Below, piece by piece: positions 7,826-40,043 of a stretch of 44,779 bases of DNA. Source of the DNA: Stramenopiles sp. TOSAG23-6 (taxonomy: Eukaryota); assembly GCA_900128565.1 (NCBI GenBank), contig LT635928.1, forward strand, positions 1 to 44,779, read 5' to 3'. Every line of letters begins with the position of its first letter. Position 1 is the stretch's first letter. Under the pieces are notes generated by a model. The model had not been told where the DNA came from, did no database searches, and saw nothing but the letters and a program-made list of their open reading frames with translations. Made by a program: the position numbers and the translations under genes.

Positions 7826-10800
7826 ATGGACTCCAATACACATACAGAACATCTTCTGTCAAGTAATAGACATCTGAAAAAATGTATGGAAGAGGGTATG
7901 AGTGTTGAGCGACGAAAGGGTTTAAGCTCTCAAGAGGCTGCCGCAAGGTTGGAAGAGTTTGGATATAATGAGTTGCCAGAGAAGAAACGTAACGTTTGTT
8001 TTGAGTTCTTGGCTTACTTCTGGGGGCCAATGCCACTGATGATTTGGGTTGCGATGCTTCTGGAATTTGCGCAAGCAATAACTGGTGATTCTGAGCATTG
8101 GGCTGACTTTGTAGTTCTCTTGATCCTCCAAGTTGCAAATGGTACCGTTGCCTTTTTTGAAGAAAGGAATGCTGGAAATGCTATTGCTGCGTTAAAGGCT
8201 TCACTGGCACCTAAAGCAACTGTAAAACGAGATGGAAGATTTATGAATATCCCGGCACGTGAGCTTGTTCCAGGTGATGTGGTTAATCTTAAATTGGGTA
8301 ACATTGTTCCAGCAGATTGTGTCTTATTGGAAGGTAAACCAATGCAAGTAGACAGATCTGCTTTAACTGGAGAAAGTCTTGCTGCCACTGTAAGGTAAGT
8401 TATTTGACATCTATCAATCCATTATATGAAATGTAAATAATCGTAATGCTTATATCATTTTTTTTTATTTTTTACACTCTCAACAGACCTGGTGATACTG
8501 TAGAAATGGGCTGTACAATTGAAAGGGGTGAGTTAGAGGCTATTGTTGAAAATACTGGCGTAAATACTTTCTTTGGTCGTACAGCAATGATGTATGTTTT
8601 ATTTTTTTTCAAATTCGATTTTTTTTTTTTGGTTTCGTACTNAATTTTGTACCTAACNATTTTTTTTTGAAATATTTTTCCAAAATACATGGTTGGAGAA
8701 ACTGAAAATGTTGGTAGATTTCAAATGGTTTTATTTCGTGTGATGCTCTTCCTCATGGCAATTGCGTGTTTTCTTGTTGGTATTATACTTTTTAAATTGC
8801 TCAGTGGAAGAAATTTAACAGCTAAAGTAGTGCTACAAAGTGTTGGTGTAGCTGTAGTAATATTAGTTGCATCTATTCCTATTGCAATGCAAGTAGTTGC
8901 TACTGTAACTATGGCCGTTGGTGCTTCATTACTTGCCAAAGAAAAAGCAATTGTTGCGCGTCTTTCAGCAATTGAAGAACTTGCTGGCATGGAAATTCTT
9001 TGCTCCGATAAAACTGGAACATTAACAATAAATAAATTGACTCTTGACGACCCTATTGTAATAGATGGTAATAGTGCAAACAGACGTAATACACACAGTA
9101 AACAAGAAAGAACATCTGAATCTTTTACACTTGAACCTGAGCATATCATTTTCTATGCAGCTTTGGCAGCAAAACGAATTGAAGGAGCTGGACAGGATGC
9201 TATAGATTTTTGTATTACACAAAAAGCTTTTCAACTTGGGGAAGTTGAGCTTCCAAATGGAATTGGTTCAAGGAGTTTAAGAGACTTTGAGGAATTAGAT
9301 TTTCTTCCTTTTGATCCATTATTGAAACGCACAGAAGCTACTGTACAACCGACTAATGCACATATGTCAAAATCTCGAAGAAAATTACGAAGTAATATGG
9401 AAAATGCACATGAACTTGACCAGGTAGGGTTAGTTGGTGCCCCATTCAAAGTGACTAAAGGAGCAGCTCCAGTCATTATAGACATGTGTGTAAATGGAGC
9501 AGAAATGAAAAGTGAAGTTCTACAAGTCGTTGATAATCTTGCTGGTAATGGCTATCGAGCTCTTGGTGTAGCAGTTCATACTCCTATTGATTCAAATCAC
9601 ACTAATACAAATAAAGCAAAAGATTTGTCTGATGGAGCTTGGAAGTTTATTGGAATTCTCAGTTTGTTTGATCCTCCGAGAAGTGATACAAAAAGGACAA
9701 TAGAATTGGCCACGGAAATGCAAGTTGAAGTCAAAATGATTACAGGAGATCATGGAGCTATTGCCAAGGAGACTGCAAAAAGATTATCTATGGGTACAAA
9801 TATATTCCCCGCCGATTCATTAAAAGGTTTATCAAAAGCTGCTGAAATGAATAATGTTCCCCCCGCAATGCAGGAACTGGTCATTTCTGCGAATGGCTTT
9901 GCTGAAGTTCTTCCTGAAGATAAATTCAATATTGTCAAAGTTTTAATGGATCGTGGATATACTGTTGGTATGACTGGCGATGGTGTGAATGATGCACCTG
10001 CATTGAAGAGAGCTCAAATTGGAATTGCTGTGGAAGGAGCTACAGATGCTGCAAGGGCGGCAGCGGATATTGTCCTAACTGAACCGGGTTTGTCTACAAT
10101 TATCAAAGCTATGGTATTAAGTAGGAAAATATTTCAGCGTGTACGAAATTATTGTATTTTTCGCATTGCTGGAACTATTCAATTGATATTTTTCTTCTTT
10201 ATCGCGGTAAACTTCAAACCTAAGCAATATTTTCATTTGAGTGATGATGTATTGTCTGTAGATAATGTCTACTTACCTGTGATTGCTATTGTTCTAATAA
10301 CATTGCTAAATGATGCATGTGTACTCACCATTGCTAGAGATAATGTAGTGCCATCACCAAAGCCTCAACAATGGGATTTAGTAGAGGTGTTTGTTTCAGC
10401 TAGTGTACTTGGAGCAGTCGCTTGTATAGGTTCCACTCTCATTTTAATAATTGGTCTTCATGCAGGCAATACTGATAGATGGAACAGTAGCGCGTGTACA
10501 TTTTTTCCTGGTGAGAAAAATAATGAAGGGAAATGTGTTATTCAATATGATCAACTATTAACTGTGTTATACTTGAAGTTATCTTTAACTGATTTTATCA
10601 CTGTATTTGCTGCACGAACTCGAAACTTCTTCTTTTCTCGTGCCCCTGCCGTTGCATTATCTGGAGCATTTGTTGTAGCTACTGGATCAACATCATTTAT
10701 TGCAGGTAATGCTAAACTTGGTAAACTTATGTCTCCTATACCTATTGGTATGATTGTAATGACTTGGATATTTTCGATTATTTGCTTTCTAGTTCAAGAT

Positions 10801-15514: not shown

Positions 15515-18500
15515 ATGATACTACTGAATATAATATATTCAATTATGGAAATATGCGACAAGCAAGAGGCATCTCAAGCAAAATACAAGGAAAAGAAGTA
15601 TAATTATGATGCTTTAATTGATATGGCACGTCAAATACCAACAAAAAAAAGTCCAAATAAGAAAGTCATATTTCACTTCTCGAATGAAGGTCTAATTGAT
15701 GAATTGGCATCATTTAGAAAACCCAAAAACAACATAGAGCTAAACAACGATAAAAAATCAATCCTACCGAAAGATTTGTTCACATCAATAACATATCCTA
15801 TGAAAAGTAATAATGCAAAGCAACAACGAAATCATTATCATAAGCAGCAAACACAAACCTCAAAGGTCGTTGACAACGAAGAGCGTTTCAAAGAGCTATT
15901 CAGACAGACTATTGATTCGAAACTTGGAATATGCCGGAAAATCTTGGAAAAGAATGCTTCGATTTTTACTTATAATAAATCGAATAGCAATAATAAAACA
16001 AAGAAGAAAGGTCCTACTTGGAACAAAGCTATAGAACATCAATTTTTAGTATTTCGAAAAGCTGTATTTCGTGTAAGTTCTTCTAAACCGTTTTCAACGA
16101 TGCTTTGCTTTCTCATTTCTCCACAACATACTAGTAAGACTTCCGAGGAAGGAAAACCTATACTTGATACCAATGATGACACTTTTTCCAATGAGTATCA
16201 AGACATGGCGGAAGATAAGAGACTAAAATGCATTGCAGAGTTGAATCAAATTTGTGTTCAAATCAAGGCAAATGGCGAAAGTGACTCAAGTAATAAACAG
16301 AAAAATTTCTTGAATAATCTTTGGCAGAAGATAGACACAAATTCGAATGAAGCAGTTTCAATTAGAGAACTTTATGATTTTTTTGAGAAAACTTTTCCTC
16401 CACTTGCTAATAGAAATATCCTTCAAAAGGCATTAAATTCTACTGTGTCTGAAAAAGATACAATAAATAATACAAAATATCCTACTAGGAAAAAAGAGCA
16501 TTTCATTTATCAAAAAGACTTATTTGCAATGTTGAAAAATATTCAAATATACAGCAATAATTATCATAAGATTCAACAATCAAGAAACACATTACATAAT
16601 ACTCTTCGGAAAATTCAAAATCAAGTTGATAGTCTTCAAGTAAAACCTCATGAAAGAATGTTTTATTTGCGAGTAGCAAGACAAATTGATGGAGATCACA
16701 TGCATCGTCAGCACGTAAAGCAATTTTCTCAGAAACATGCTAATTTAGACGATTTTGTTAGTAAAGAACATAGATTAACTGTAGAGCAATTTATGGATTG
16801 CAGGGCAAAATATTTCCGACAAACGAGGCAGAAGTCCCAAAAGAAAAATAAAACAATCAATGATAAGAAACATAAGGCAAAGCAAATAGCAACAAAACGT
16901 AGCAAATTTATTGATGACAAGGATAAAGTTCTACGAAAGTTAAACAAGTTGACAGACCATAGAATATTATCACCAACGCGAAAAATTGAGATTGACGACA
17001 AAGTTACTAAAGTAGACTATAGTACTAAATTTTCAGCAACAACAAAACGTCCAGATGAAACGCTCTCTCCGTTTCTCGACCAACCATTTTTAGGTGAATA
17101 TTTTCCAATAGAAAATCTAGCGATACCAGAACATCATGTTTCCCTGGGGGTATGTTTTATTTTTTTTCAATTTCGAATTTATTTTTTTTGATACGAAATT
17201 TCGTACCTAACAAATTTTACAAAAAAAATATTTTTTCACAATATATGTTCATACAAAATCACCCAAAGGTAGTAAAAGTATGATGAATAATTCTACATCA
17301 GTTTTAGTCGGTGGTGGATTAAATGCAGTAAAAGGAATACAATTGATAAAATCTCCACAAAACCGAGATCCATTGGAGTTGATGATAAAACTTGGTTTTG
17401 AGTATACAAAATGCGTGAAAACATATGGTGGTGGTAAAGCATTGAAAGCTTTTACACAAAGAGAGAAAGAACTATTTGATACAAATGCTACAATTATTCA
17501 AAAGTATATACGTCGTTTGCAATGCATAAATTGGAAATATAGTTTACGTGCTTTACAGACACCTATAGTACTAAGATATGCAATTCATCGGCATTGCAGT
17601 AACTCAATGTTTTTAAAATTACATGATGTTAGAAATATTCTTCAGTATCTAGGTATTTGCATTTCTGAAAGAAATGATAACAAGGATATATTATCTGTAA
17701 GATATCATGGCCCGTATTTATATATGGACTGGGTAGAGGCTAGATTAAATGAACAAAAAACTAAAAATGAGGTGTCGGATATAAATGATGTATTTAATGT
17801 GGATTCCGAAATATTTTATTATTGGTGCAGGAAAAATGTCAGTCATATACTGATACAGCAAAGTATTACAATAAAAGGTACAAATAATAGTCTAAGTGCA
17901 ACTTGTCGGGAGGAAACAAAACTAAATCTATATAGTAAATATTTTTGTAAAAGGCGAACTGAAAATATCCAGCGAGCAAAGTCTGTAATTCGTGGTGCAA
18001 AAGACTTTTTACATTCACATCCAAACATTAGTTTTACATCAAAACTTGAAAATATTTCTAGTGGTCTGGATCGAACTGAAATAAGACAAAGTCAAGTTGA
18101 TGAGTTCAATATATTGCAACTAACACTTAGTGCTCCAGGAAGATTATCTCTTAGTATCACAAATAGCCCAAGAAATCAATCTAAATCAAATATCAAGGGG
18201 AAAATAAAGAAAACATTTGAAGACGAAAATGGTGAAAAACGGCAGTGGTTGGCAAGGAAGAACGCGAATATGTATTTAAAAGACAGAGGTTGGAAGAGGA
18301 AAAGTAAAATATCAAAGTGCAAAGAAAAATTAGATACAATAAAATATTGTAAAGAAATTAAAGAGGTCACAAATGAATTATCACATGTACCAAGTACTTT
18401 CACTCAAACAATGGTAAATTCTGAAGCTCTTGATACAAAATATTTCTCTCCAAAAAAACATCACGAAGACAAAAGTAATAATAAATTTTGTAATGTTACG

Positions 18501-23248: not shown

Positions 23249-24456
23249 TTATAAAAGATCGTCGATTTCATTTTCAATATTGTGTTTACTTGTTTCGGAT
23301 TTATTTGTTTCGGATTTATTTGTTTCGGGTTTCGGTTGTGGCAATTTAACTGTTGTTTTTGGTTTTAGACGGGCTTTTTTCTTTCGTCGACGAACTCTCA
23401 CAAAAGTGGGGTTAGGGTTTGGAAGCGATAATATTTTTGCTGTTTGTTTTTTAGATATTTCATTATGCATTACTTTACTTGATGGATTTCTAAAGTTTTG
23501 AGATATTTCATTATGCACAACTGTGCTTGATGGATTTCTAAAGTTATCATTCAGATTATCAAAACTGGAAGGCTGTTCGTTCCAATTAACATCATACTCT
23601 TTAATCAAATTATTTCGTGTAGAAATTTCATCATTTGATTCACTGTCAGACTCAGTTTCTTCAATAGTTTTGTCATCACTTTCACCATGTATAGTGAAAA
23701 AATATATCAAATTAAAAATTCATTAGTTAGGTACGCGTAATTTGCTATGAAAAAATAAATTTGAAATTAATGATGAAAACGTACACGATAGTCACTACCA
23801 AGTTGTGCATGTAAATTTTCAATATGTTTTCTTTTCGAATTAAGTAATGCAGTAAATTGTTTAATTAGTTGAATTTCCATTTGTTTTTTTACAGTAGCGG
23901 CTTCAATAGTGGCAGTGTTAGATGCTTTCAAAAGACCTTTCAACTCTTCATTCTGCTTCTTCAAAGAAGAAATTGTACAAATCGACTGAGAGTATTGCTC
24001 TGATACGTCTACAAGTAATTGAGTCATAGCTTCTGATTTTTTCGATTGATGCATATCGATAGAGAGAAGTTTCAGTTTAAGTAAAGATCCTGGTCTCTGT
24101 ACTTTAACAACAAAAGTTCCCGTCTGGCAATTAATAGCATAAGAAAAGCGTGACCGTTCCACTTCTGTACCAAGAAACGCAGTAAACATTGCAGCACAGT
24201 AATCTTCATTAAATTCAACATCATTTGGTTTTAAACCGCTAAATATTTCAAAAGATTGTACCTGATATATTTTCAGACCACGACAAACTTGAATGTCGAG
24301 TTTTACACTGTTTCCAGTGACTCGACCCTTTACAAGAACAAAATAAGAAAATCCTTTGACATTAAAATGGAACATGTTCACTTTTAGAGTACCTTTGTTC
24401 TCATTGACGACATTCCCTGGTGATTCAGTTAACATGGAATCGATACATTCTGACAT
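23249..24456 (-). CDS. XRCC4: XRCC4-like NHEJ protein; exons 24456-23785, 23686-23249 (369 aa)
   Basis: Beta-rich head, then coiled coil with KKQMEIQLIKQFTALLNSKRKHIENL resembling the XRCC4 ligase IV-binding segment; low-complexity tail. Confidence 0.7.
23687..23784 (-). other. Non-canonical GT-AT family intron (98 nt)
   Basis: CGT|GTACGTTTT...GTACCTAAC...TTCACTATACAT|GGT; phase 0 joins the ORFs. Confidence 0.8.
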
Positions 24457-24773: not shown

Positions 24774-26087
24774 ATGTCGCTAAACTCAATGTTTGCACAG
24801 CAAAAGATAGAATCTGAAACACAAATGAACCATGGATATCCTTCGCTTCACAGTGATGAGTTTCAATTATCCAGGATATTATTGAAAGATTTACACAATA
24901 GGGACGATATAATTTCGTCTAGGGATAAAACGTTTCTAAATAGACATATAAATGTTTCACTTGATAAAGCAAAAGTGGAGACATTTTCAGGACTCTATCG
25001 AGGACAACGGCATATTTCTCTAGAGAAAGATAAACTACACAACGCGCCAAGAAGAATACGTACTACTGGAAATCAAAATAAAGGAAAACAAACAAATAAC
25101 TGCTCAGTTACCAATGTCGCTAGAACTAGTTCTCTTGTTCTCTCTCTAGTTTGTGATAATACTGTTCTTCACGTACATTTCATGATTCATTTCAATTTCT
25201 ATTTTAGTATTACCAAATTCTGCACCCAACAAATTTTAAATTTGACATATTTTTTCACAAAACATAGTACTGATTCTATATCCACTGACACTGACGGTGA
25301 CACAGACAATAGTCAATTCATTGATGAAATGAACAATGAAACTTTACACAAAACACAAGCAAAATGTATAAAATCTAAGGTACAACTTTCGAATGTCAGC
25401 GAAAATATTTCCAATGATGTAAAAACAACAGTAAATATGGCACTACAAATGCCTGTTATTCTTAGGGAAATTCACACTGTACTTAAACTTTTACATCAAG
25501 CAAATTTGAAATTTCATCAAGGTATATTAGCTTGTATTCAAGAGAGTTCATTAACTAAATGTCAGAGAAGTTACACAACTTCTACTTACTTTCATTACTG
25601 TGAATTTAATCAATTTGTTGAAGGATTTGAAAATTTAGTTTCTCTTGCACAACTGGAAACTAAGAACCCTAACCCTAATCAATTACCAAAAATGATGTTG
25701 AGAAAATTATCAAACATTATTTTGACTGTCTTTCGTGTGCAGGTATCCAATAGCTCATTCCTTAAATTTGTTGATACTTTAATGGTTTCAGCTTGTTTTA
25801 CAATCATGTCGCTCTGTTACTCCATTAGTAAAAATATGGATATTGATGACGCTAAATATGCCACTATAGTATTCGAATATTTAGATATGGGTAATTTAGG
25901 AATGGTAACGTCATTACAATTGAAGTATTTGTATGATGGTTTAATAGGAATCAGTAAAAGTATTAGTACAAATATTAGTACGAGTGAGTTTATGTTCCCA
26001 CAAAATAATATGAATAGAGTAGAATTTATAATATGGTTTAAAAATTCAATGAAGCGAGGGGTGTTTGCTGATATTTTACAATTATAG
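24774..26087 (+). CDS. Uncharacterised protein with C-terminal EF-hand-like region; probable in-frame intron 25173-25265
   Basis: ORF; VFEYLDMGNLGMVT and MNRVEFIIWF are EF-like. Confidence 0.6.
   Translation: MSLNSMFAQQKIESETQMNHGYPSLHSDEFQLSRILLKDLHNRDDIISSRDKTFLNRHINVSLDKAKVETFSGLYRGQRHISLEKDKLHNAPRRIRTTGNQNKGKQTNNCSVTNVARTSSLVLSLVCDNTVLHVHFMIHFNFYFSITKFCTQQILNLTYFFTKHSTDSISTDTDGDTDNSQFIDEMNNETLHKTQAKCIKSKVQLSNVSENISNDVKTTVNMALQMPVILREIHTVLKLLHQANLKFHQGILACIQESSLTKCQRSYTTSTYFHYCEFNQFVEGFENLVSLAQLETKNPNPNQLPKMMLRKLSNIILTVFRVQVSNSSFLKFVDTLMVSACFTIMSLCYSISKNMDIDDAKYATIVFEYLDMGNLGMVTSLQLKYLYDGLIGISKSISTNISTSEFMFPQNNMNRVEFIIWFKNSMKRGVFADILQL
25173..25265 (+). other. Degenerate GT-AT family intron, stop-free and 3n (93 nt)
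   Basis: GTACATTTCATG...TACCAAATTCTGCACCCAAC...TTTTTCACAAAACAT inside an open ORF. Confidence 0.65.
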
Positions 26088-26129
26088 TTATAGTTATAAT
26101 AAAGTTTATAGTTTTGGTACTCATTAAAA

Positions 26130-28019
26130 TCAGAAAAAGTCTCGTACGAGAAATCCATTTGATATTTTTCTTGTACTTCGGTCCAAGTCTTGCATAATAC
26201 TACCATGTGACATAGGATTTGAACTAGTAAAATCATTTGTTTGTTCAGTGATATTTACAGCATTGTTGTCATCATCTGAATTTTTCTGATCAGAATCAAA
26301 AATTTTGTCATCTGAATTTTTCTGATCAGAATCAAGAATTGCTCTCAAATAATTTATTTCTGATTTTGCCAAATGAAGTTGTTCTCGCAATTCATTAATT
26401 TCTATGAATAAGCTCGTCATATCCTTATTTTGTATATTATTTGTATCATTTTGTTTATCTACAATTTTCATACTATTTGTATCATTTTGTTTATCTACAA
26501 TTTTCGTATTATTTGTATCATTTTGTTTATCTACAATTTTCGTATTATTCGTGTCCATACTTTTTTCAATTTTTGTTATATTTTCTCTATTATCTGTACT
26601 ATTTTTCAGTTGATCATGCATATTTTTTAAGAGTTCCTCTTTAATCGAAGAGTCACTAATATGTTTTGTAACAATATCCAACTGTTGATCAGTGGCACAA
26701 TTATTTCTTTGTAAGTTACGGAAAAGAGTCAAACCCTTTCTAAATGATTTTTGCATGTCTCTCTCCTTATGTCGATTTTGTTTTCGTTCTGAGAAACAAC
26801 TCTTCAATATATTTAACCGCCAAACATCTGGTTCTATAATATCATTTATCCGTGTAGTAAAAGAATTTGGTTTCAATCCAGCAGCAGGTATACCTATATC
26901 ATACAAATGAGCAGCATCGTCAATAAAACCATGTAACAACATAAATTTTATTATTCGATTGAACCATGTTATATCAACTTTCACTCCAGAGGACTGTAAT
27001 AAAGAAAGTATTTTTTCCGACTCCTCCGGTGATTCCAGTCTACTAAGCATAAGCTCAATATGACTTCTATTCACTAAACTTTTATCACACATTATAGTAA
27101 ATAATTTCAGAGATTTAATCTTACCCTCAACAGTACCATCATTTAATTCTGAAAGGTCTCTCGATAAATTTCGACCTAAAATATGTTTTTTATATCCTAT
27201 AGTATCTCTTTTTGTACCTACACGTGTCAGTTTCTTTCTTTGTTTTATTTCTTTTGTTTCTTTACCCTCTGTAGGATGGATTAATAAAGTAGATGTTTTT
27301 TCTTTTGTTTCTTTACCCTCAGTAGGATGGATTAATAAAGTAGATGCTTTTTCAACATTTTTGTCTAATCTAGGAGGAGTAAAACCTGCAGATCTCATAT
27401 GTCGTCTTGCAGCCCATGCATCTTGTTGTCTACCCGCTTTAATTAATTGGTTTATAAGTATCGAGTAACTCATTTCATTTGTCAAATTCATATGTTGCAT
27501 TAGTTTTACCATTTCAACTGTTTGGTCGGAATTTGCAGTAGCAGAAAGGACAAGATTGCATAATTTAGACGTAGCCTTTCCAGCTACAATTAAATCTGCT
27601 GTAATATCACGAGCCCTGAAAAACCCAGACTCGCCATTCCTCAGCTCCCTTTGAACAAGAGAAAATGTCCTTGCTTCTTCGGCAGACTCGAAGTCTTCAA
27701 CTATTGGTACATGAGAAGCAATATGAGTTGTAGTTGAAAATATTCGTTGAAAACCGGAAGAATAAGGATAGCATAAGGGTTGCCGTTTAATTTCATTTAC
27801 ATAACTATTGATACTATATGGGGCTATATACTGCATCCTGTAATTCATTCGTCTAGTTGTGTGTACATGACGAATAAGTAACTTTGGAAAAATAGGGAAC
27901 ACAAGAAGTTTCTTGGAAAAACGTCCAATGTCACGTACTTTCCTACATAGAAAGCAAGTTTGCCTGTAATTTAGCACCCGCGTCGATCCGATGAAACTAT
28001 TTACTAAACTATGATGCAT
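26130..28019 (-). CDS. PPR-like helical-repeat protein, probably organelle-targeted
   Basis: SYSILINQLIKAGRQQDA, VDITWFNRIIK, GLKPNSFT; Arg-rich N-terminus; internal 36-bp and 51-bp tandem repeats. Confidence 0.6.
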   Translation of the reverse strand: MHHSLVNSFIGSTRVLNYRQTCFLCRKVRDIGRFSKKLLVFPIFPKLLIRHVHTTRRMNYRMQYIAPYSINSYVNEIKRQPLCYPYSSGFQRIFSTTTHIASHVPIVEDFESAEEARTFSLVQRELRNGESGFFRARDITADLIVAGKATSKLCNLVLSATANSDQTVEMVKLMQHMNLTNEMSYSILINQLIKAGRQQDAWAARRHMRSAGFTPPRLDKNVEKASTLLIHPTEGKETKEKTSTLLIHPTEGKETKEIKQRKKLTRVGTKRDTIGYKKHILGRNLSRDLSELNDGTVEGKIKSLKLFTIMCDKSLVNRSHIELMLSRLESPEESEKILSLLQSSGVKVDITWFNRIIKFMLLHGFIDDAAHLYDIGIPAAGLKPNSFTTRINDIIEPDVWRLNILKSCFSERKQNRHKERDMQKSFRKGLTLFRNLQRNNCATDQQLDIVTKHISDSSIKEELLKNMHDQLKNSTDNRENITKIEKSMDTNNTKIVDKQNDTNNTKIVDKQNDTNSMKIVDKQNDTNNIQNKDMTSLFIEINELREQLHLAKSEINYLRAILDSDQKNSDDKIFDSDQKNSDDDNNAVNITEQTNDFTSSNPMSHGSIMQDLDRSTRKISNGFLVRDFF

Positions 28020-28475
28020 TATTTAACAGGTAAAACTAAATTTGGTTATATGCAAAATGTCGGCTTCTGAAACGCCCAGTACAAATTTTGCGCAGATTCC
28101 TAACGAGACTAACCTCAAACTGTTCGACGTCAGTTTATACACTTGAAACAGTATATGTCAATTACTTTTAATCCAGTATGTCAACTTATATTTTAATATC
28201 TTAATGAATTGGACTTTTGCTGAAACAAACAACCAAACAGACTCAGAGATATTATACTAGAAAAATACTATGAATGGGATACGTATATTCCTTTTGACCA
28301 GCTGGCCTTGCAAAATTTGGCCGCGGCACGTGTGTTTTTTGGCATCCTCCTCTCATAAGCTCACTTATTTCCAAGCTGTCGCTTTAGTAATTCTATAGTT
28401 ACTTAGTTAGTTGAGAGTAAATCACTAAATTATATCCTAATAGACAATTACCTTAAATCACTTTAAGATTTGAAA

Positions 28476-29072
28476 ATGCCATCCAATAAATGGACGAACT
28501 TCGTTGTTGTCGGTGCTGTTACTGGTGCTGTAGTTGCAGGTGCTGCGTATGTATATCAAAATTTCGCCAACCCAAAGTCAACTAAGGGAAGTAACAAATC
28601 TGAGAAGACGTATATAATGATTAAGCCAGATGGTGTCCAGAGAGGACTTGTTGGCGAGATTGTTACTCGTTTTGAAGAAAAGGGTTTCAAACTTGTTGCT
28701 TTTAAGATGATGAAAGCTTCGCGCCAACTCCTTGAAAAGCATTACTCTGACCTGAAAGGAAAAAAATTCTTTTCAGGTTTGATAACGTATATGCTTTCAG
28801 GACCTGTCGTCTGCATGGTGTGGGAAGGTACCGGTGCAGTAAAGACAGGACGTGTTATGCTAGGCGCAACTGACCCTGCAAAATCAGTACAGGGTTCTAT
28901 CCGAGGAGACTTGTGTATTTCTGTTGGTAAAAATATATGTCACGGGTCTGATTCTGTTAATAGTGCAAAGTCTGAAATTGCTCTTTGGTTTCCAGAAGGT
29001 AAAAACACAGATCCGAAGGTATGTGACTGGGTCAGTCATCATGACCCGTGGATTTATGAAGCTGGGCGATAA
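28476..29072 (+). CDS. NDK: Nucleoside diphosphate kinase with N-terminal hydrophobic extension
   Basis: [42 protein letters not shown]. Confidence 0.96.
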
Positions 29073-29226
29073 ATGTAGCGATAGATTGTGGTATAATTTG
29101 GCGATAGATTGTGGTATAATTTGTAGATAAATGTGAGATCAATTTTGAATTATGCTTTTAATGAAGAAATGAAGTCTTTGTGTTGTATTTACTAAATAAA
29201 TTTGAACTGTTTGAACAATATAAAAT

Positions 29227-30474
29227 TTACTCAACTGACTTTGGTATAAAGACTTGTGCCTGAGCATTGAACTTAGTTACATTATTTAAAGGACAATTTG
29301 TACCAAAGTACTCATGCTGGTTTTCTCCATATGTAGGGTTAGGGTTTTCTCCATATGTAGGGTTAGGGTTTTCTCCATATGTAGGGTTAGGGTTATTATT
29401 CATATGTTCAATTGTGTGGTACATTTCATTGTCACTGTTTGTCCATAATGTAGTTGAATAAACATCATTATCTTCAGGATAAATTCCAGTCACTATAGGT
29501 AAAAAATGAAGTTTTGCCAAATCTGTTAAACCAATGTAAGACAAACTAGATAACCGACGAGGGTTAGGGTTACGACGTGAATTCGACCGACGAGTTGAAA
29601 AGTTAGAGTTTCTATGACGACGACGTAAATTATTTTTCGTATTATTTTTTTTCGTATTAGTAAAATCCCGTGTTTTTATGTTTGAATCATAATTTGAATC
29701 ATAATTTGAATCATAATTTGAATCATAATTTGAATCATAATTCATAGTGAATATATCGACGTTGCTTCTAATAAAACATTCAATTACAAAATTTAAAATT
29801 CCAGTTGTATTATAATCAGATCTAGGTAAATTAGGTGCCAACGCTTGAAGACAAATATCTTTGCCATATCCCCCAAGACAGCCACATATAGCTGTTAATT
29901 GAGTCATTCGACCAAAAGTAGAGTTTTTCGACGTGTCATACGGAGGACCAAGAGATCTTTTCAGAATGAATATAGCAACGTGTTCTACAATACATCTTTC
30001 TGTTAGTTTGAAATTTCCAGGAATATACCATTCGGGAAGCTCCTGTACGTTTTGAGAATTGACTCTGTTATCACTCCTATCACTCTGAAATGAAGCCATT
30101 GACACATCTGATATTGATGTAGTAGAGCCATCTACACTTTCACCATCAGATACAATTTCGTGCTCTACATTAGGACGATTCGGACTGCTAGGTTTGCTAA
30201 ATTCACTTGAAGAAGAAGAACTGTAAACAGCACTTGACGAACTTACATCGGTACAATCCGGTTCATGAAATAACTTATGACTTAAAGGAGACTGTGATTG
30301 TGTAAAGAAACTGTCTGCTGCATGTTGATTGGTCTGAAATCCAGAGTAAGTATTCCAATGATAGAAATAATCGAGGTGGGTTGAAGATATTTGATCCCAT
30401 TGTTGTTGTAGAGGCATATTATTCACACTTCTCGAACGACGTGAATGTGTCTCCTTTCTGAGGTTACGACGCAT
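29227..30474 (-). CDS. Low-complexity protein with C-terminal PAM2-like motif
   Basis: 415-aa ORF; ends TKFNAQAQVFIPKS; NYDS x5 (29681-29742) and NPNPTYGE x3 repeats. Confidence 0.55.
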   Translation of the reverse strand: MRRNLRKETHSRRSRSVNNMPLQQQWDQISSTHLDYFYHWNTYSGFQTNQHAADSFFTQSQSPLSHKLFHEPDCTDVSSSSAVYSSSSSSEFSKPSSPNRPNVEHEIVSDGESVDGSTTSISDVSMASFQSDRSDNRVNSQNVQELPEWYIPGNFKLTERCIVEHVAIFILKRSLGPPYDTSKNSTFGRMTQLTAICGCLGGYGKDICLQALAPNLPRSDYNTTGILNFVIECFIRSNVDIFTMNYDSNYDSNYDSNYDSNYDSNIKTRDFTNTKKNNTKNNLRRRHRNSNFSTRRSNSRRNPNPRRLSSLSYIGLTDLAKLHFLPIVTGIYPEDNDVYSTTLWTNSDNEMYHTIEHMNNNPNPTYGENPNPTYGENPNPTYGENQHEYFGTNCPLNNVTKFNAQAQVFIPKSVE

Positions 30475-30755
30475 CAGTGGGATATCAATAGAGCTATTTT
30501 GAACTGTGTATCCGCACGAGCCACACGAGATACTTTTTTGTACGTGAGAGATAGCTGAGTTCCGCTTTTATTGTTTCTAAAAAATAGTTGACGTAAAAAA
30601 CGATTGACCAATTTAGTGAAGGTAGAGTGTTGTGAGTGACACCAATAAAAATTGCAGGGAGAAATCGAATGGCGCATATATATCAGGTATTATTATTACA
30701 ATTATAAAATGAGCAGGTTTGTACAACAATGAAATTTTTTTTTATTTTTTGTTTT

Positions 30756-33700
30756 TTACCTTCCACTTGCATTCCTCTCTAACGATAATCTAAGGACATC
30801 AATCTGTCCACTCAACCCCTCAATTTCTTCTTGTAAATGTTTATTTTCACCATGTGCACGATCTAATTCTTCTTCTTTAGCTCCCATTATTTCAAGTAGT
30901 ACAGAATGTTTCATTTTTATATCCTTTGTAAATCCTAATAATTTTTTCTCATTTTCACGAGATTTTTCAAGTTCAGTTTTACATTTTTCTTCTTTATCTG
31001 TAGCAGCTACTAAACTATTTATCAATTCTCTATGATTATTTTCTAATTGGAAAATCTTTCGTTGGAGGGTCCGTATTTCATTAGATTTTATACCAAGTAA
31101 TCTTCTTGCCTTTAACAACTCTAAAGCATCTGATGTATTTTTAGTATTTTTTGGGATTTCATTTGTATTACTATTCATATCATCAGTCAAATCTTCAGTA
31201 TCATTTGTCATTGTACCATTTTCAACACTTTTAGAAATTTCATTATTTTCGAGAGAATTATCTTGTGGAATGTTATTTGGTGTAGCATTTGTAGCAAAAC
31301 TGACTTTAAATTTTGTCTGACATTGCAAAAGTTCAAATTCCAAATTATTAATTCGACTTTTTGCTGAAAGTAGGTTTTTTTTTAATGTAGTTATTGACGT
31401 AGCATGATCCTGTATAGATTTCGTTCGCTCAGCACGAATACTGTCTAAAAGTTCCGACAAACCAGCAGCTTGTTGTTTTTCTTTTATTCTCATTTCTTCA
31501 AGTGATTTAACTTCAACTATTTTCTTTTCCAATTTTGTAGAGATTTTCTCCATCGTTTGAATCGCATTTTCTTTTTCTAAAACAGCTGACTCTAAACGTT
31601 TTTCAGCATCATTTCTTTTCATTCGATCTTGATGAGCCATACTTTCAGCAACACTGACTTTACCTTGTAAAATATTTTCCATATTTGCTGACACTGCAGC
31701 AGCAGCATCACTTTCAGCGCGGAGTGTCTGTAATTGAATGACTAATGGTCGCGTAGCATCTGCGTTTGAAGAAATCACTTCTTGGTGACGTAATTCTACA
31801 GTTCGTAGTTTATTTCGTAGTTCTTTGATCTCATTCCGAAAACTTTCACTTCTTTGATGGTTTTCTTTTCTAGATGTTTCAATTTGTTGCTGTAACATAC
31901 TTATTTCTGCTAATAAGGAATCAATTCTATCAATTGATGATTTTGTGTATTTGCTTTTTTCATTTGCCTGCTCTTCCTCATGAGCTTTTAATTTTGTCTG
32001 CGCTACTTCAGAAATCTTCTTAGCATCAGATAAACTTAACGCTGCATCTTCAATGAGTTTTTGAGTCGACTCTTTTGTCTCTTTTAACTCTCGCTTCAAA
32101 GATAAAACTAAAGTTTCTGCTGTTTCCCAATTTTTTTTTAAATCCACAGCATTTGATTTCTGGTTGTCATGTGCTTCATTTAATTCGAGAAATTCTTTTT
32201 CTTTTATTGAAAGTTTGTTTTGTACAGATAATGCTCTCTGACGGTGTTTCAAACTTTCTTCACGTAATAAAGATAATATATTGTGAAAAAATATTTTTTT
32301 TTTACTACGTAATCGTTAGGTACAAAATTTCGTATGAAAAAAAAACAAATTTTGAAATTCAATATAAAAACGTACATTCTTTCTTTGTTTCAGCCAAAGA
32401 ATTTATCGTTTCATTCATACTCGCTTCTGCATTAGCTGCGCGAGAATGTAATTCTCCAAATTCTCGTTGCCTTTTTGCTAACTGGCGCTCACGTACAACT
32501 ACTTTTTGTTCAAGCAAAGAAGTTTTTTTATCCGCTTCTAGAACGGATTTATTGAATAAATTAACTTTTTTGGTCAATTTTTCTACTTCTTGTATTTTAC
32601 TTCTCAGTAAATCTTTGGAATTTTTTAATTCTAACCGAATCTCTGCAATTTCATCTATTGTATCACTCATCAATATTCCATCCACTGAAATTTTATTATC
32701 ATCATTTTTTAATTTAGTTTCTTGTATTTGTGTTTTTTGTATACAAATATCCTTATTATTATTGCTATCATTATTATTTTCTTCTTCGTTGTCGATTGTA
32801 AGAGTTTTATCATCAGACGTTCTATTGACAATAACACCATTGCTATTCTTATCCATTTTATTATCATCATCAGGTATTGTTGTAGTACCACCAGTGCTTG
32901 TAGAAGCAACAACAGCAACTTTATCAGAAATAGATGCATTACTATTTGTACTGCCACTACTACTGACACCTTCAACAAAAACAACTTTATGTTTTTCAGT
33001 TAACTCAAATATTTCATTTCGGAGTTTTTCCGTTGTTTTCTTTTCTTCAGATAAATCAATTTCAAACTGTTGGGCAGAAATAAGTTTAGACTTCTGCGTT
33101 TCGAATGCAACTTTAAATTTATGCGCGATTGCTTTAAGCCTTTCCATTCTAGATTTCATTTCATCTTTTTCTTTCGTTGACTGTACATGCTGTTTCTCCA
33201 GAGAAGAAGTTTTTTCCTTTTCTGACTCAAGTTCATCGGTCAACTTAGAATTTACACCAACCATTGTTTGAAGTTGCTCTTCACGCTTCTTTAATGCAAA
33301 TTTCAATTGTTTGATTTCATTCGACTGTATCTTTAGACGGGATTCTAAGTCATCAACAGGAACAACTATTGTTGATTTAGCAGAGTCATCAATAGGAACA
33401 ACTGTTGTTGAATCAGCAGAGTCATCAATAGGAACAACTGTAGTTGATTCAGCAGAGTCATCAATAGGAACAACTGTAGTTGATTCAGCAGAGTCGTCTC
33501 TGTGTTCTGTGGGTCCCGTTGACAAGCTTGAGGATAAATCACCATCTTTCGTATTATCAATTATTAGGTCTTGTTTTGATTGTATAGGCTTTTCTTCAGG
33601 TAAACTATCCTTTTTGAGGCTATTTTCAGGTGTGGTAGAGTCTTGGACAAGTGAAGAAACTGATACCCCAGGAAGATCTTTGGTGGCGGAGTCAACTGGT

Positions 33701-33858
33701 AATTCCTTACCAGTTCCATTTTCTATATTTCTTTTACCTGATACACCATTCGCTATAGCTTCTATCTTGTTAACACCAACAGCATTATCAAAGTGAGCCT
33801 CCATGTTCTTATGCATCTGGGCTGCACTATCCAATACAGCAGAAAAGCTATCCCACAT
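30756..33858 (-). CDS. TMF1/Sgm1-like golgin coiled-coil protein; exons 33858-32376, 32275-30756 (1000 aa)
   Basis: Long coiled coil; ADATRPLVIQLQTL and C-terminal KHSVLLEIMGAKEEEL resemble TMF-family motifs. Confidence 0.7.
32276..32375 (-). other. Non-canonical GT-AT family intron (100 nt)
   Basis: GAAT|GTACGTTTTT...TACGAAATTTTGTACCTAAC...TTCACAATATAT|TA; phase 1 gives KKELSLLREESLK. Confidence 0.8.
33348..33497 (-). repeat. 36-bp coding tandem repeat x4 (DDSAESTTVVPI)
   Basis: Directly visible in DNA and protein. Confidence 0.9.
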
Positions 33859-34092
33859 TGTTCAAACTTTGAATATCAAAATCAAAAAGAAGTAACTGAC
33901 CTACGCTCGTTTATACAATACTCTAATTAACGTTATACAAATAGGAGCAAAGATGTTGAAGCATATAATCCAATGATTAACTTGTTACAGACTTGTTGGG
34001 TAGTTTTCTTTCAATGTCATTCCCCAGCGTAAAATAGTCTTGGTGAGTCCTTGGGTGTATGAATTTATGTGGCCGCCAAAGAGATCTGATTC

Positions 34093-34108
34093 AGAGAGAG
34101 AGAGAGAG
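34093..34108. repeat. (AG)8 microsatellite in a divergent intergenic region
   Basis: AGAGAGAGAGAGAGAG. Confidence 0.85.
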
Positions 34109-34348
34109 GAGGAACTGAACATTGGGAACAGGTTTGTGTTTGCCGAAGAAAATTTGAAATTCTTTCGTTTCAGGCAAATATATATAGGAATTCATATGTC
34201 TGTCACGTGATTGTTCGTAAATATAACTGTTACAACAACAGAGAACTAAATACTGCATAGATCTGTAAATGGCATCCAAAAGTCTCCTTCATCTAGTTTC
34301 CGTCAATTTTTAAATCTGCAATTACTGTATTATTGACTTGCAAAAATT

Positions 34349-36811
34349 ATGGAAAAAATGCTACCTGAAAATTTTTATAGATATGACAAGGGAATTTTTC
34401 TGAATGAAGAAAATGAAAAGATACAAAAATATCGTAGAAACTACCGCAAGTGGAGACTTCGTGGAAGCACGGGGGCAGTGGGCGAGGTCGGTGATTGTAT
34501 TAGTGATCCTTTACAGTATTCACATGATATTATTATTGATGTCGACAAAGTAAATTGTGCAATATGTCAGAAAGAAGCGCGTTGCCCAGTTTCACTGAAA
34601 TGTGCAGGACATCATATATTTTGTTGGAAATGTCTAAAGCTTGCTGACTCAGCACAAACAAAACGCGCTTGTCCTTTGTGTCGCGAAAGTCTTCAATCAC
34701 TTGATCCATCATATCACAATGTAGAAGTATTTAGAATGATGACATTACATGGAAAGAAGAAAACAAGAAACAAGTCTCTTCATTTAGAATTGAAGATACT
34801 TTCTGATGATGAACCAGCAGATGAAAAGTACATAACGAAAAAGGAATATAATCTTGTTGAAACAAATTCACGTTTTGAAACGAAAGATAATTTATTAAAA
34901 TCGGATGCTCCATTTCCGTGGAAGTTACTGCTGCCAACTCTATTTGTCACTGGTGTGGCAAATGTACGTTTTCATTTCAATTTCGAATTTTTTTCTTATA
35001 CGAAATTTTGTACCTAACAAAAAACATTTGAATGAAAAATATTTTTCCAAAATATATTTAACTTGGACATTTCATACAGCTTACTTACCTTTCATGGTTG
35101 ACTATGTAAATAAAGAAAAATCATCCAATGCTTCCAATCCTAACCAGAATGATTCTTTAAATTCTGTAGGATATCAAATTGGCTGGATAATTGCTTGTAT
35201 GTTTTCATTATTTATTTCAAATTTATTTTTTTACTATGAAAATTTTGTACCTAATGAATTGTTTTTGACTAAAAAACAAATATTTTTCACAGAACTTCGT
35301 TTCAGTTTGGGCAATTGATATCTTCATATTCTTGGGGTCAAATTTGTGATAAATGGGGTCGAAAACCTACCCTATTGTTATCCTCGATGTGCTGCTGCAT
35401 TTTCTTTGTTTTCTTTGGTTTCAGTAGAAAACTATGGACAATGTTATTATTTCGGTTTGGAAGTGGTGCTTTGAATGGTGTAGTAACAGTAAGTAAGTCT
35501 GTCATAGGAGATATTTGCTCTGGAATTCACATTGGTAAATGTTGGAGTCTTCTCGGAGCAATGTATGGATTTAGTCGCACATTTGGTCCAGCACTTGGTG
35601 AATCGTTGTCGCAACCATCTGATAAATATTCATATTTTAGTGATATTTCATTCTTTAGAGCTTATCCTTTTGCATTACCATCACTTTTTGTAGGTACATT
35701 TGCTTTCATTGCATTTATTATTGGATTTTTCTATTTGAAGGAGACAAAACCACAAGATTATAAAAAGGATATAGAAATGCTGGACTTTGAATATGATGTA
35801 ATAAAAACTAATGATGATACGCTAACCACTAGTGTGGAATATAATGTAATAAAGACTAATGATGATACTCTGAACACTAGTATGGAATATAATGTAATTA
35901 AGACTAATGATGATACTCTAAACTCTAGTATTGAGATGGAAGCGAGGGATACACGTATTGACATAGATAATGCAACCAGCGTTGTTAAACAAATAGAAAT
36001 TAGTGAAAATGATACAACAAAGATAGATAATACTGTTAAATGTTATGATGATAACCCGAGTAGCAAGGATGAATCAAATACCAAACGAATACTGAAAGAT
36101 CCAAACTGTGTCACAGCATTATCACTATATTTTTGGTTCGCAGCTGCAGAAGGTATCACATCAGTGGGTATTCCACTTTGGCTCATATCTTCAAATGAAG
36201 CTGGGGGTTTGGAGTACACTGCAAAAGATGTCTCATATCTCTATTCTATTGCTGGAGTTTTTGAGATCCCCTGGCAAATTTTTGTATTTCCTTTATTATC
36301 AAATACTTATGGTTTCTTGTTTTTACTTCGGATGGCAATCTTTAGTTGGATTTCAGTCATTTTGACGATGCCTTTTATTGTACCATTATTTATTTCAAAA
36401 GATGAAACTGGAATTTCTACATCTACCACGAATACAGTTACATATTCTAATTCAGAAACTGATACAAATATAATAGTATGGTGTATAATTTGTATTTATT
36501 TCACTGTAATAACAGTATGTCAAGTAACTTCATTCTATTCAATTTTCCCAATCATTAATGCTTCAGCTTCCAAAATGGATGTAGGGACTATCAATGGAAT
36601 GTCACAAGTGATAGCAGCATTTGCTCGACTACTAGCCCCAATTATTGGTTCAAATATTGCTGCGTGGACAGCAACAACAGAATCGAATAAGAAGAAATTA
36701 AATGGAACTTCATATCCATATCATGCCATTTTATTTGGAGTTGCTGGAATATTTGCATCGGTTGTAATAAAACAAACATATAAAATCAAAGTATCAAAAT
36801 TAAGAAAATGA
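34349..36811 (+). CDS. RING finger fused to an MFS (ZIFL/DHA1-like) transporter; exons 34349-34963, 35058-35196, 35298-36811 (755 aa)
   Basis: CAIC...CAGHHIFCWKC...CPLC RING; YLPFMV, WGQICDKWGRKP, FGPALGESLSQP, FFRAYPFALP MFS motifs; frames joined by two family introns. Confidence 0.75.
34964..35057 (+). other. Non-canonical GT-AT family intron (94 nt)
   Basis: AAT|GTACGTTTT...TACGAAATTTTGTACCTAAC...CCAAAATATAT|TTA; phase 0; no AG inside. Confidence 0.82.
35197..35297 (+). other. Non-canonical family intron, apparently GT-TT (101 nt)
   Basis: GCTT|GTATGTTTT...TTGTACCTAAT...TTCACAGAACTT|CG; both nearby AGs are out of frame; gives GWIIASFQFGQ. Confidence 0.65.
35789..35935 (+). repeat. 48-bp coding tandem repeat x3 (EYNVIKTNDDTLNTSM-like) in the MFS central loop
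   Basis: Directly visible in DNA and protein. Confidence 0.85.
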
Positions 36812-36953
36812 TTCATCGAAATAATAATAAAACATTTGTATAAAAATTAAGACAAAATAGTTCATCGAAATAATAATAAAACATGTAAAAAAGACAAAAA
36901 ATAATTTATCGAAATTAATAAAAAAGAGTAAAACATTGATTTTTCAAAAAAAA

Positions 36954-38446
36954 CTAATCCAACTTTCCACGCTTCTCCTTCTTTGTTTTTGTTTTTGTTT
37001 TTATCTTTGTTTTTGTATTTTCATTTACCTTTTTCAAATTTTTTCCTTTATTTTTTTGGTCTCTGTGAGAAATATTCTTTAAATAACTTTGTGACGTCAT
37101 TTCGTTGACCTCCTTCGGATGTTCTTTCGCCCATGATAAAGATCTTGGGTATATAACTTCCATCAAATTAGTATACCATCCATGGTTATAAATATTTTTA
37201 ATTTCAACTCCTATCAGTTTTACAAATCTCTCTGGGATCTGATGTATTATAAAAAAATATTTCAAACATTTGAAATTCGTTAGGTACAAAATTTCGTATA
37301 TGAAAAAAAAATAGATTTAAAATTAATTTTAAAATGAATGATAAAAACAAACATGATATTCTTCAAAATTTGGATTATCTCCACGACGCATTGCATCCTC
37401 TCGAATCTTTTTATTTCTCTTTGTTAAAAAATTAGCCTTTTCTATGAAATACTTCAAATCATCGTATTTATATCCTTCATTTGTCGTCATATTTCGAAGA
37501 ACTAAAGAAAAATGATAAAGTGTAAATACAAATATGACAACACCCATTACTGACGCAGTTATGCATAGACCCATCATATAATTATACTTACTTAACATGA
37601 ATCTAAAAACTATGAGTACTGTTGCTTGTGTTCGCTCTCCAGTGATAGCACTCCGAAACGTTGCTTCAAATAAATTGAGATCGTGAACAATCGATAGTAA
37701 AGTCATGTATTGTGAAAAAACACGACATCACAAAAAAACATCGTTAGGTACGAAATTTCGTACGAAAAAAAATTGAAATTGAAAAAAAACAAAAAAACAT
37801 ACATACCAATCGCCCAGCCACCATACATTAACAATAGCGAAGAACTCAAGATAAATTGTAAGAAATACCAATGGTTTTCTTCCCCAACTGGTTGGGCAAT
37901 CCACCCACAATAATGATCATATCTGGAAACATTTACACCCATTATTGAACAAAATTTAGAACGCGCTGGTTTTCGAAAACCAGCGGTACGGCAAACGTCG
38001 GGGTAATATATTTGTTGGTCGTATTCATAATTGTCAAAACGTCTGTGTGTAATACTTGTAATATATCCTGGTTCTTTTGAGCACGCCTGGTAGAATTTAA
38101 ACAATGTATAGAACATTAATCCTGTCCATAAGATTTTGTGTATTTCGCCAACATACTTATTTGGAACCATAGGGAAAACTGTAAACATTGCAATACCCCA
38201 ACCTCCGAGAATGAGACCAAGGTACATAATTTGCAACACAGGATTTCGTTGTTTGAACATATAGTGAAAAGCATTATAAGCATATGTAATCAAAAAGCCT
38301 AATCCTACTGATCTGAGAATTTTTTTCAAATAATGACCAAGGCTAAAAAATGATCTATTCAAAAAGTTATCCTGCGACGTGCACATGACAACGTAAAAGC
38401 TCGTCAAAATTGACAGAATGATAAATGCAGGCACAAGAAGCGACAT
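36954..38446 (-). CDS. DHHC-family palmitoyltransferase (Swf1/ZDHHC4-like, DHYC motif); exons 38446-37803, 37704-37353, 37241-36954
   Basis: KPARSKFCS...RYDHYCGWIAQPVGEEN, NMTTNE, NIYNHGWYTNLMEV. Confidence 0.88.
37242..37352 (-). other. Family intron (111 nt GT-AT, or 114 nt GT-AG using the next CAG)
   Basis: CAT|GTTTGTTTTT...TACGAAATTTTGTACCTAAC...TATAATACAT|CAG|ATC; both ends are in frame. Confidence 0.75.
37705..37802 (-). other. Non-canonical GT-AT family intron (98 nt)
   Basis: AT|GTATGTTTT...GTACGAAATTTCGTACCTAAC...TTCACAATACAT|G; phase 2; no AG inside. Confidence 0.82.
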
Positions 38447-38752
38447 TTTCAATATACACTGTAATAGACCAGACGCAAAAAAATAACTACTATGTAATAT
38501 GTAATGAACTTCGTGAAAGAAACAGACCCTTGTAAAAAGAACAGCAATGTTAATGTGTATACTTTCTTTTTCTAAACTCTCGAGTGTTTGGATTGCGATT
38601 GGCCGCTATTCATGACTGGCTAAAGCGCTAAACAAACGTACGAAAAGCTATCATTTAACCCTAACCCTACTATATAGGTAGTCGCGCGGGGTTGAGCCTC
38701 AACGTCGATTAAAAAATAAAGTTTGGTAAAAAAAATCATTATTTATATTTTT

Positions 38753-39814
38753 TTACATTTCAGATTGACCAACTTCAACAGAAGTAACAAAAGGAAGAGA
38801 ACATTCATTCATTGTTGTTTCCTTATTTTCCCATGAATCAACATCCTTATCAATCACATCTTCACTATTTCTATTCTTTTGTTTTTCACTGAGACGAGAC
38901 ACAACTTTATCTTTACTATAACTACAAATACCAATAATAATTAAAAAGGCAGCTAAAATATAAAAATGATTCGGAAATACATGATCAATCACAATTCGAA
39001 CAATTACAGCCCAGAGGTTCGAAGTTAGTAAAGATATATTAAAAAAGGCTGAATCAGAAAGTCGCAGCATGAAAGCAGTCATGCAATACATACTACACAA
39101 ACAAATGACAAATCCAGTCATATAACAAACTGTATGAAGATCTAATGTAAATTCTGACGTTTCACAAAGAATAAATGACTGGGATATAGAAATAATACTG
39201 CCAAATAAACCAAGCATACCTAAAAATTCAAGTGGGTTATGAACTTTTACGACACTTTCTTGACCTACGTTAGATGTCGCGTAGAGAGAAGCGCCAAGTA
39301 AGCACAGTAAGTTACCTAAAAGTGGATTTCTTGCAGTAGAAGAATTTGTAGTTGAAACATCCGAATAAAATAATGCACCAATTCCTGAGAAACATAAAAT
39401 ACAGCCAATGAAATGATATCGAGTATATTTTGCTGTAAGGAAAATGTAGGATAAAAACATACAAACAGGAACAGAGAAGCAATCCAAAAGTAAAATACTC
39501 GTCACTTTTGTATACTGATAGGCTTTTACCACAACAAAATTTGCTTCGACGTCAAACAATGCTAGGATTGCATATTTCCACCAACAACCTTCTAGTGTAA
39601 AACCACCACGCTTGATAAATAAATACGGGAGAAACATTGACAAAAGTATATAATTAGGACATGACTGTAAAGCAGGTGCGTCAAAGCCTCTTTTCTCGAG
39701 GAGACTGGAAAAAAGACCAGTACCTCCAATACAAAATGAAATAAGCTGCCCAAATAAGATTTGCTTAATTGTTAATTGTGTACATATGCTCCATTTCTTT
39801 CTTGTCGTCGACAT
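38753..39814 (-). CDS. SLC35F1/F2-like (DUF914) DMT-superfamily transporter
   Basis: GQLISFCI, WWKYAILALFDVEANFVVVKAYQYT, LLDC, LYATSNVGQE, FNISLLTS. Confidence 0.9.
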   Translation of the reverse strand: MSTTRKKWSICTQLTIKQILFGQLISFCIGGTGLFSSLLEKRGFDAPALQSCPNYILLSMFLPYLFIKRGGFTLEGCWWKYAILALFDVEANFVVVKAYQYTKVTSILLLDCFSVPVCMFLSYIFLTAKYTRYHFIGCILCFSGIGALFYSDVSTTNSSTARNPLLGNLLCLLGASLYATSNVGQESVVKVHNPLEFLGMLGLFGSIISISQSFILCETSEFTLDLHTVCYMTGFVICLCSMYCMTAFMLRLSDSAFFNISLLTSNLWAVIVRIVIDHVFPNHFYILAAFLIIIGICSYSKDKVVSRLSEKQKNRNSEDVIDKDVDSWENKETTMNECSLPFVTSVEVGQSEM

Positions 39815-40043
39815 GATAATTCAAAGACTATATTATATTGTCGTGATTACTATTGGAGTGTCGATGTTCTACTGGAATATAGAGCCGGTGCGTGTCTGTT
39901 ATGACAAACGACAAGTAGTAATTAGGCTAGGGTTAGGGTTACGTAGAAATATTTCGATTCAGCAACAGTTCTCAACACCGTTGTGGTTTCCTGCCTTGTA
40001 CTAAACTAAACGTAGGGCTCATTGGACCTAAATCCTATTTACA

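Follow-up and report, generated by a model that had tools for sequence, protein, structure and literature searches.

Positions 35197 to 35297 of the window (the whole stretch of DNA analysed here, 44,779 nt long) hold, with a probability that we place at roughly three in four on sequence comparisons, a real U2-type intron that stems from a mobile element with a 2-bp TT duplication, its 5' cut being specified by a matching U1 snRNA and its 3' cut by a motif. The intron is best read as belonging to a GT-AT introner-like family that this U1 serves and as having had TT for its target, and its terminal TT would be the residue of an insertion into a TT site. For the genome as a whole, we lean slightly towards a scenario in which a mobile family took over and the sole spliceosome was re-tuned from AG/GT...AG to AT/GT...AT introns (slashes mark the 5' boundary): U1 would have been rewritten to read the donor including the last base of the exon, and a fixed motif would serve as the reference point for the 3' cut while AG is no longer checked, TT being cut exactly and a CAG five bases away ignored.

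Host gene and source organism

The window sequence is that of an AT-rich eukaryote. In a Nop58 tree (FastTree; a single gene with 43 sequences, namely the query and 42 picked among 120 matches listed), the organism grouped with Incisomonas marina with a support of 0.95, and judging from this one gene it probably belongs to the marine heterotrophic stramenopiles. Pfam profile matches identify the product of the gene at 34349-36811 as a RING finger with a ZIFL-like MFS transporter behind it; two similar introns interrupt this gene. The RING finger is joined in frame to the N-terminus of the transporter, and three tandem repeats of about 54 nt each were spotted by eye in the MFS central loop (35790-35930). 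When intron 35197-35297 is retained, the reading frame stops at 35316-35318. The features of the gene are as follows:

34349..34963, + strand: exon 1 of the RING-finger and ZIFL-like MFS gene (RING Pfam matches; ORF 34337-35017; putative ATG at 34349)
34964..35057, + strand: intron 1, a GT...AT member of the family that also has AT ahead of its donor; removal restores the frame
35058..35196, + strand: exon 2, ending in ...GWIIA plus one base (phase 1)
35194..35204, + strand: donor region (pairing with the U1 arm of the genome)
35195..35196, + strand: exon-side copy of the putatively duplicated TT (sequence; family statistics)
35197..35297, + strand: intron under study, 101 nt, GT...TT (homologue spacing; family caller)
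35237..35255, + strand: family core and putative branch motif, four mismatches against the commonest form; branch A probably at 35254
35283..35295, + strand: T-tract and conserved 3' motif, here CACAGAAC, consensus CACAATAC
35290..35292, + strand: bypassed CAG, arisen by substitution within the family motif
35296..35297, + strand: intron-side TT, putative 3' splice site
35298..36811, + strand: exon 3, remainder of the MFS domain, stop-free (MFS_1, E=3e-24)
35300..35305, + strand: unused TTTCAG, coding (within S-F-Q)

Placement of the putative acceptor at 35297

The original prediction had described a phase-1 GTATGT donor at 35197, CACA at 35288-35291, CAG at 35290-35292, TT at 35296-35297 and TTTCAG at 35300-35305, all of which were borne out. 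It had held both AGs to be out of frame with this donor, and the acceptors 35292 and 35305 indeed each give stops. The proposed end at 35297, in keeping with other family copies, was recovered by a position-weight caller for the family that leaves the final dinucleotide unscored and likewise called 35197-35297. The suggested fit to MFS spacing held in an alignment of homologues, where 35297 was the sole acceptor with both conserved glycines correctly placed; joined to donor 35197 it gives GWIIASFQFGQLISSYSWG. Relative to the D of the pattern D..GR[RK], these glycines stand at -22 in 110 and at -26 in 101 of 114 scored homologues. The homologues were collected using exon 3 only (150 sequences, of which 36 were excluded because the anchor pattern or flank was missing); an earlier search with the whole exon 3 had yielded two matches.

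In a scan with donor 35197, eight of the 35 acceptor positions tested were open, and 35297 obtained the best profile score with 160.2 bits. The runners-up were 35294 (157.5 bits) and 35300 (152.1 bits), the HMM margin over 35294 being just 2.7 bits. The best donor usable with the CAG at 35292 reached 151.9 bits, and the seven donors usable with the AG at 35305 all stayed at or below 146.3 bits. An assembly indel would rescue neither AG, since a conserved helix would then gain or lose residues. At the level of DNA and protein comparison, the length of the intron is thereby established; the cut at 35297 would be the work of the spliceosome. Because TT also stands directly before the donor (35195-35196), cuts at 35197-35297, 35196-35296 and 35195-35295 yield identical mRNA, and mRNA alone cannot place the cut.

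Mapping of two metatranscriptome runs from one sample and of two DNA runs to positions 20000-39900 was uninformative, the RNA runs containing 13-14% of the words. Neither a spliced junction nor an empty site was found among the 15 joints listed, and no indel at 35285-35305 was present among the rows listed. Contigs of the two RNA runs carry intron sequence; none of the contigs listed for the four runs spans intron 35197-35297. Contig C444 is identical over 3456 nt, a duplicate and hence not independent.

The intron family

The 19-nt family core displayed 7368 matches in the 21-Mb assembly and none in the reversed control, the genome-wide count being inflated by duplicate contigs (C443/C444, C13/C14 and C2432/C2433/C2439/C2440). 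The family was characterized in a sample of 835 kb, made up of the window and 80 further stretches, half of the latter having been chosen because of known matches or because they belonged to the same long contigs. There, 318 cores were found and 302 scored, and the 199 copies with both ends above threshold were kept. Their 3' ends were AT in 163 copies, GT in 11, AG in 9, TT in 7, AC in 4, AA in 2 and TG, CT and GA in one each, as called by end models in which the final dinucleotide is unscored and a penalty for T-runs just after the end may slightly under-call TT. Once the introns were removed, the reading frame was restored in 132 of the 139 copies whose flanking frames are clear, and without exception (20 of 20) in those of this set that have non-AT ends. 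The family, to which sequence comparison assigns 35197-35297, thus consists of many similar introns at unrelated coding sites, as is typical of introners.

A further property of introners, ends that match within a copy as after target-site duplication, is also displayed by the family. The last two bases of the intron repeat the last two of the exon in 145 of 199 copies and differ in the other 54. Among non-AT copies, for which a shuffle gave a mean of 2.1 and a maximum of 8 in 10,000 trials, the two dinucleotides are equal in 22 of 36, and we therefore consider the TT most likely to be a 2-bp target duplication. The match, as read from the DNA, is confined to two positions, with none at offsets -5 to -3 and 0 to +2. 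All seven TT-ended copies are preceded by an exon ending in TT, and six of them are frame-compatible, 35197-35297 included. Further members in the window are:

8592..8690, + strand: family intron AT/GT..AT in a P-type ATPase gene
17150..17246, + strand: family intron GG/GT..AT
23687..23784, - strand: diverged family intron GT/GT..AT, end set by visual count, rejected by the caller
25173..25265, + strand: diverged family intron AC/GT..AT, end set by visual count, rejected by the caller
32276..32375, - strand: family intron AT/GT..AT
37242..37352, - strand: family intron with AT on both sides
37705..37802, - strand: family intron AT/GT..AT in a DHHC gene

A rough screen of the 835 kb for non-family GT-AG introns printed 19 candidate rows, most of which were family members or doubtful by eye and one of which was canonical-looking; by this outcome, the family seems to supply most introns here.

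The canonical-looking non-family intron (AG/GTAAGT, TACTAAC, CAG) lies at L035:8182-8284. Atypical starts occur in 14 of 199 copies, either AT (12), TT or another non-G start, or GC, GA and GG, and two copies read AT..AC. In its GTACGAAATTTCGTAC form, the core is a 16-bp palindrome immediately upstream of a branch-like CTAAC (37746-37761 in the window, and other copies); the left arm of the palindrome varies without obvious compensation. In the first 10,000 nt of contig C27 there are several family-like introns whose donors read GTAAGT or GTAGGT, whose ends are AG and which contain telomere-like TAACCC repeats.

Register of the cuts

Copies in which the two dinucleotides differ are informative on where the cuts fall. 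In mismatched pairs, AT is kept on the intron side in 40 copies (X..AT) versus 7 on the exon side (AT..X; p=1e-6). In the 47 imperfect copies whose frames could be used, stops arose nowhere with the GT cut, in one copy with a 1-base shift and in three with a 2-base shift; one of the copies with a shift-induced stop lies between the contiguous Aa_trans profile positions 141 and 146, and another sits just before a MatE match. The histidine of the SET-domain NH motif, aligned to solved structures, is retained only with the GT cut in a copy that ends in AG, and an XPC valine (isoleucine in human) is lost under the 2-base shift. Where exon position -2 alone departs from AT, this base is the third of its codon in 10 of 17 copies versus 25 of 102 (p=0.008), as is expected if the upstream copy of the dinucleotide is coding. 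Taken together, asymmetry, stops, conserved residues and codon positions establish from DNA and protein sequence that the family is GT..NN, and by extension 35197-35297 would be GT..TT. Divergence is not measurably higher in mismatched than in matched copies (p=0.25), and 12 of the 40 X..AT copies depart from AT at both exon bases, which drift after duplication fits poorly.

U1 snRNA and the spliceosome

The U1 snRNA of this genome begins with AAACGUACAUGG, the Rfam consensus with AUACUUACCUGG. It was matched with 54.1 bits (E=3e-12), below the gathering score of 69.5, and is present in two identical contig copies; a second, canonical U1 could exist in the genome and be absent from the assembly. 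The changes at positions 2, 5 and 9 of the recognition arm face donor positions +7 (T in 99%), +4 (C/T in 97%) and -1 (T in 85%), and each fits the family donor AT/GTAYGTTT. Averaged over the 199 copies, 9.1 of 11 positions form Watson-Crick pairs with the genome's U1 versus 6.9 with the consensus arm, shifted registers reaching at most 3.7, and the duplex with the genome's U1 is the more stable one in 192 of 199 copies. For the donor at 35194..35204, the genome's U1 forms nine Watson-Crick pairs and one G-U pair out of 11, the Rfam consensus arm seven. Complementarity to U1 is thus directly apparent from the DNA.

By its GT donor complementary to U1, its branch motif (CTAAY) and its T-tract, in this order and with the GUAGUA of U2 intact, 35197-35297 has the properties of U2-type introns. 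It lacks the 3' AG of the canonical GT-AG class, ending in TT, and AG is found in only 9 of 199 family copies. The U2, U4, U5 and U6 snRNAs are present with canonical recognition motifs. On contig C1146 (L053:9-645), the genes for U5, U2, U1 and U4 follow one another in a head-to-tail array, separated by 2, 23 and 5 nt, an arrangement that suggests one precursor transcript. The donor consensus of U12-type introns is RTATCCTT, from which the family profile GTAYGTTTT departs, and U11, U12 and U6atac had no match in the assembly, which is incomplete and was searched without a positive control. Over human residues 1342-1700, Prp8 is nearly identical to the human protein, and the stretch that we take to be the alpha-finger differs only at KW/RF; no cause for a relaxed 3' check was therefore found there. 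None of 15 zf-CCCH matches resembled the U2AF small subunit when compared by eye with its domain layout, which is not proof of absence. An ORF resembling the U2AF large subunit exists, with a score below the model cut-off.

Choice of the 3' end

The original prediction had proposed that the acceptor is chosen by position rather than by dinucleotide. The positional part of this claim stood, in that AGs are bypassed and the cut falls at a fixed position after the T-tract and CACAATAC; its second part did not, as the dinucleotide counts too, with AT at 163 of 199 ends and the asymmetry of 40 versus 7. An AG lies between the branch motif and the end in 50 of 190 non-AG copies, and in eight non-AG copies it lies 4-7 nt before the end, always out of frame. 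The end is found 10-11 nt past the last T-run in 172 of 193 copies, a figure that is partly circular as the caller is anchored there, and two bases after a conserved CACAATAC-like motif. Position -2 is A in 89% and position -1 is T in 91% of the copies. The 3' part of family introns contains fewer AGs than expected (57 versus 130), a depletion that may partly go back to the founder sequence. A ruler starting from the branch point was rejected with branch-to-end distances of 32-59 nt, as was scanning to the first downstream AG, which is in frame in 39 of 125 copies.

Perhaps some protein recognizes the T-tract together with the motif and would thereby gauge the 3' position; the U2AF large subunit, with its one candidate ORF, may be that protein, and the 3' end would then be docked with a preference for pyrimidine-A-T. 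Splicing is said to depend on a non-Watson-Crick pairing of the first base of the intron with its last (PMC13326754). This pair would be G-U in 35197-35297, a copy that also lacks A at -2, and splicing of TT-ended copies may be poorer than that of AT-ended ones.

Proposed mobile origin

We posit the insertion of a small mobile element of non-autonomous type (GTAYGT...CACAATAC), in the course of which two bases of the target were duplicated; this would yield GT...AT introns at the usual target AT and GT...TT at the present target TT. Excision of the element with one copy of the duplication would restore the codons exactly. The 5' cut would be set by the U1 snRNA with its arm matching AT/GTAYGTTT, and the 3' cut would fall two bases past the T-tract and its motif regardless of a nearby AG, AT being preferred and GT, AG, TT, AC and AA tolerated.

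The terminal inverted repeat of the family measures only about 4 bp (GTAT/ATAC), short of the at least 6 nt that, together with an autonomous partner, characterize introners of the MITE or DNA-transposon type. No autonomous element with matching ends was found in a search restricted to PF13359, which returned five matches, four of them from one duplicated contig with a Harbinger-like element. This element was rejected as a partner, having its own 28-nt inverted repeats and TAA flanks. It comprises two ORFs (L115:502-3610, contig C2432), and a 26-nt family core lies between its converging ORFs, outside called introns. No empty site in a relative was found among the only two loci of the orthologue search, at 29-30% identity.

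Alternative explanations

Canonical or poor splicing, which we consider unlikely, would have GT 35201 joined to the CAG at 35292 (in frame, with three extra residues), another donor joined to the AG at 35305, an assembly indel, or frequent retention. The frame of 35201/35292 is open, the depletion of AG in family introns hints that AG may still compete, and no junction was present among the RNA joints listed. However, this joint scores 151.9 against 160.2 bits and displaces the conserved glycines, donor 35201 pairs weakly with U1 (-3.6 versus -8.1 kcal/mol), and none of the seven donors for AG 35305 exceeds 146.3 bits. Even with an indel, either AG adds or removes residues in the conserved helix, and six further TT-ended copies exist, five of them frame-compatible. 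A shade less likely still is that the two-base match is a working signal and not a relic, the 3' cut being chosen or selected so that the intron end repeats the exon end. The 22 equal pairs among 36 non-AT copies would suit such a signal, as would the lack of a transposase partner (PF13359 search) and of an empty site, but 54 of 199 copies are mismatched and yet restore the frame in most testable cases, and a match within the copy is the published signature of target duplication (10.1101/2022.06.06.494994).

A shifted cut (TT GTATGT...GAAC, 35195-35295), with the family as NN...AC introns, mostly AT-AC, removed by AT-AC chemistry or a minor spliceosome, appears very unlikely to us. For 35197-35297 its mRNA is indistinguishable from that of the GT..TT cut, the element itself ends in AC in most copies, and A-C terminal pairs are isosteric with G-G (PMC13326754). 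Against this stand the stops in 3 of 47 imperfect copies, the loss of the conserved SET histidine and XPC valine, the asymmetry of 40 versus 7 with the codon-position signal, the pairing of U1 in the GT register and, as a weak point given an incomplete genome and no positive control, the lack of U11, U12 and U6atac matches. We give least credence to removal without the usual spliceosome chemistry, such as the structure-guided excision proposed for euglenid non-conventional introns, to which non-AG ends and a palindromic core beside a branch-like motif might point. These introns are defined by a lack of U1 complementarity and a stem joining both ends (PMC6221363). The family has its donor, branch-like CTAAC and T-tract in spliceosomal order, its donor is matched by U1, and its predicted fold leaves the two ends apart.

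Comparison with known systems

Few checks in splicing are as conserved as the 3' AG, and thousands of GT-AT introns with natural GT-TT, GT-GT and GT-AA variants represent an allelic series for the needs of the second splicing step. The matching U1 changes point to co-evolution of spliceosome and mobile element, which has been argued for introners but seldom observed at the base-pair level. In practical terms, most split genes of this lineage will be predicted wrongly by gene finders that rely on GT-AG. The literature searched, which excluded supplements and most subscription papers, holds no description of GT-AT introns in such a protist, and the intron and splicing passages of marine single-cell papers do not mention them.

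Target-duplication introners of the Chrysochromulina type carry a 5' site and take the 3' site from the duplication (10.1101/2022.06.06.494994; PMC12130899). The present family resembles them in its similar introns at unrelated sites, ends that match within the copy, one splice site derived from the duplication and unchanged mRNA length. It differs by a duplication of 2 bp, mostly AT, so that the recruited 3' site is not AG, and by lacking a long terminal inverted repeat and a detected autonomous partner. The 3' sites listed in PMC12130899 are AG and AC only, other families having been screened there by hand. Introner elements of Amoebophrya have inverted repeats of 8-20 nt, direct repeats of 3-5 nt and no dominant terminal dinucleotides, and U1 was undetected (PMC7789003). 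Both are repeat-derived non-canonical introns with direct repeats at the junctions, but in the family described here the donor is fixed, a branch-like motif is present and U1 matches.

In Fritillaria borealis, non-canonical U2-type introns coexist with a canonical U1 5' end and a duplicated, divergent U2AF (PMC13326754). Shared with our genome are the escape of most introns from GT-AG, a U2-type spliceosome and possibly the lack of the minor one, no match to U11, U12 or U6atac having turned up in our incomplete assembly; the GT donor and the altered U1 set our genome apart, and the duplicated U2AF is a feature described for Fritillaria. Co-evolved U1 snRNAs have been described for Entamoeba (AACAAAC) and Mastigamoeba balamuthi (ACGUAC; 10.1101/2022.06.08.495308), and as in these, the U1 arm is altered here to pair with an atypical donor, sharing the ACGUAC core with Mastigamoeba and the extended pairing at +7 with Entamoeba. 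Unlike in both, the arm is also changed opposite exon position -1, where T instead of G is its partner, and the donor that it matches is that of repeated introns with non-AG 3' ends, none such being described in the sections seen of that work. What is new here is a U1 with three recognition-arm changes, each matching the donor of the family.
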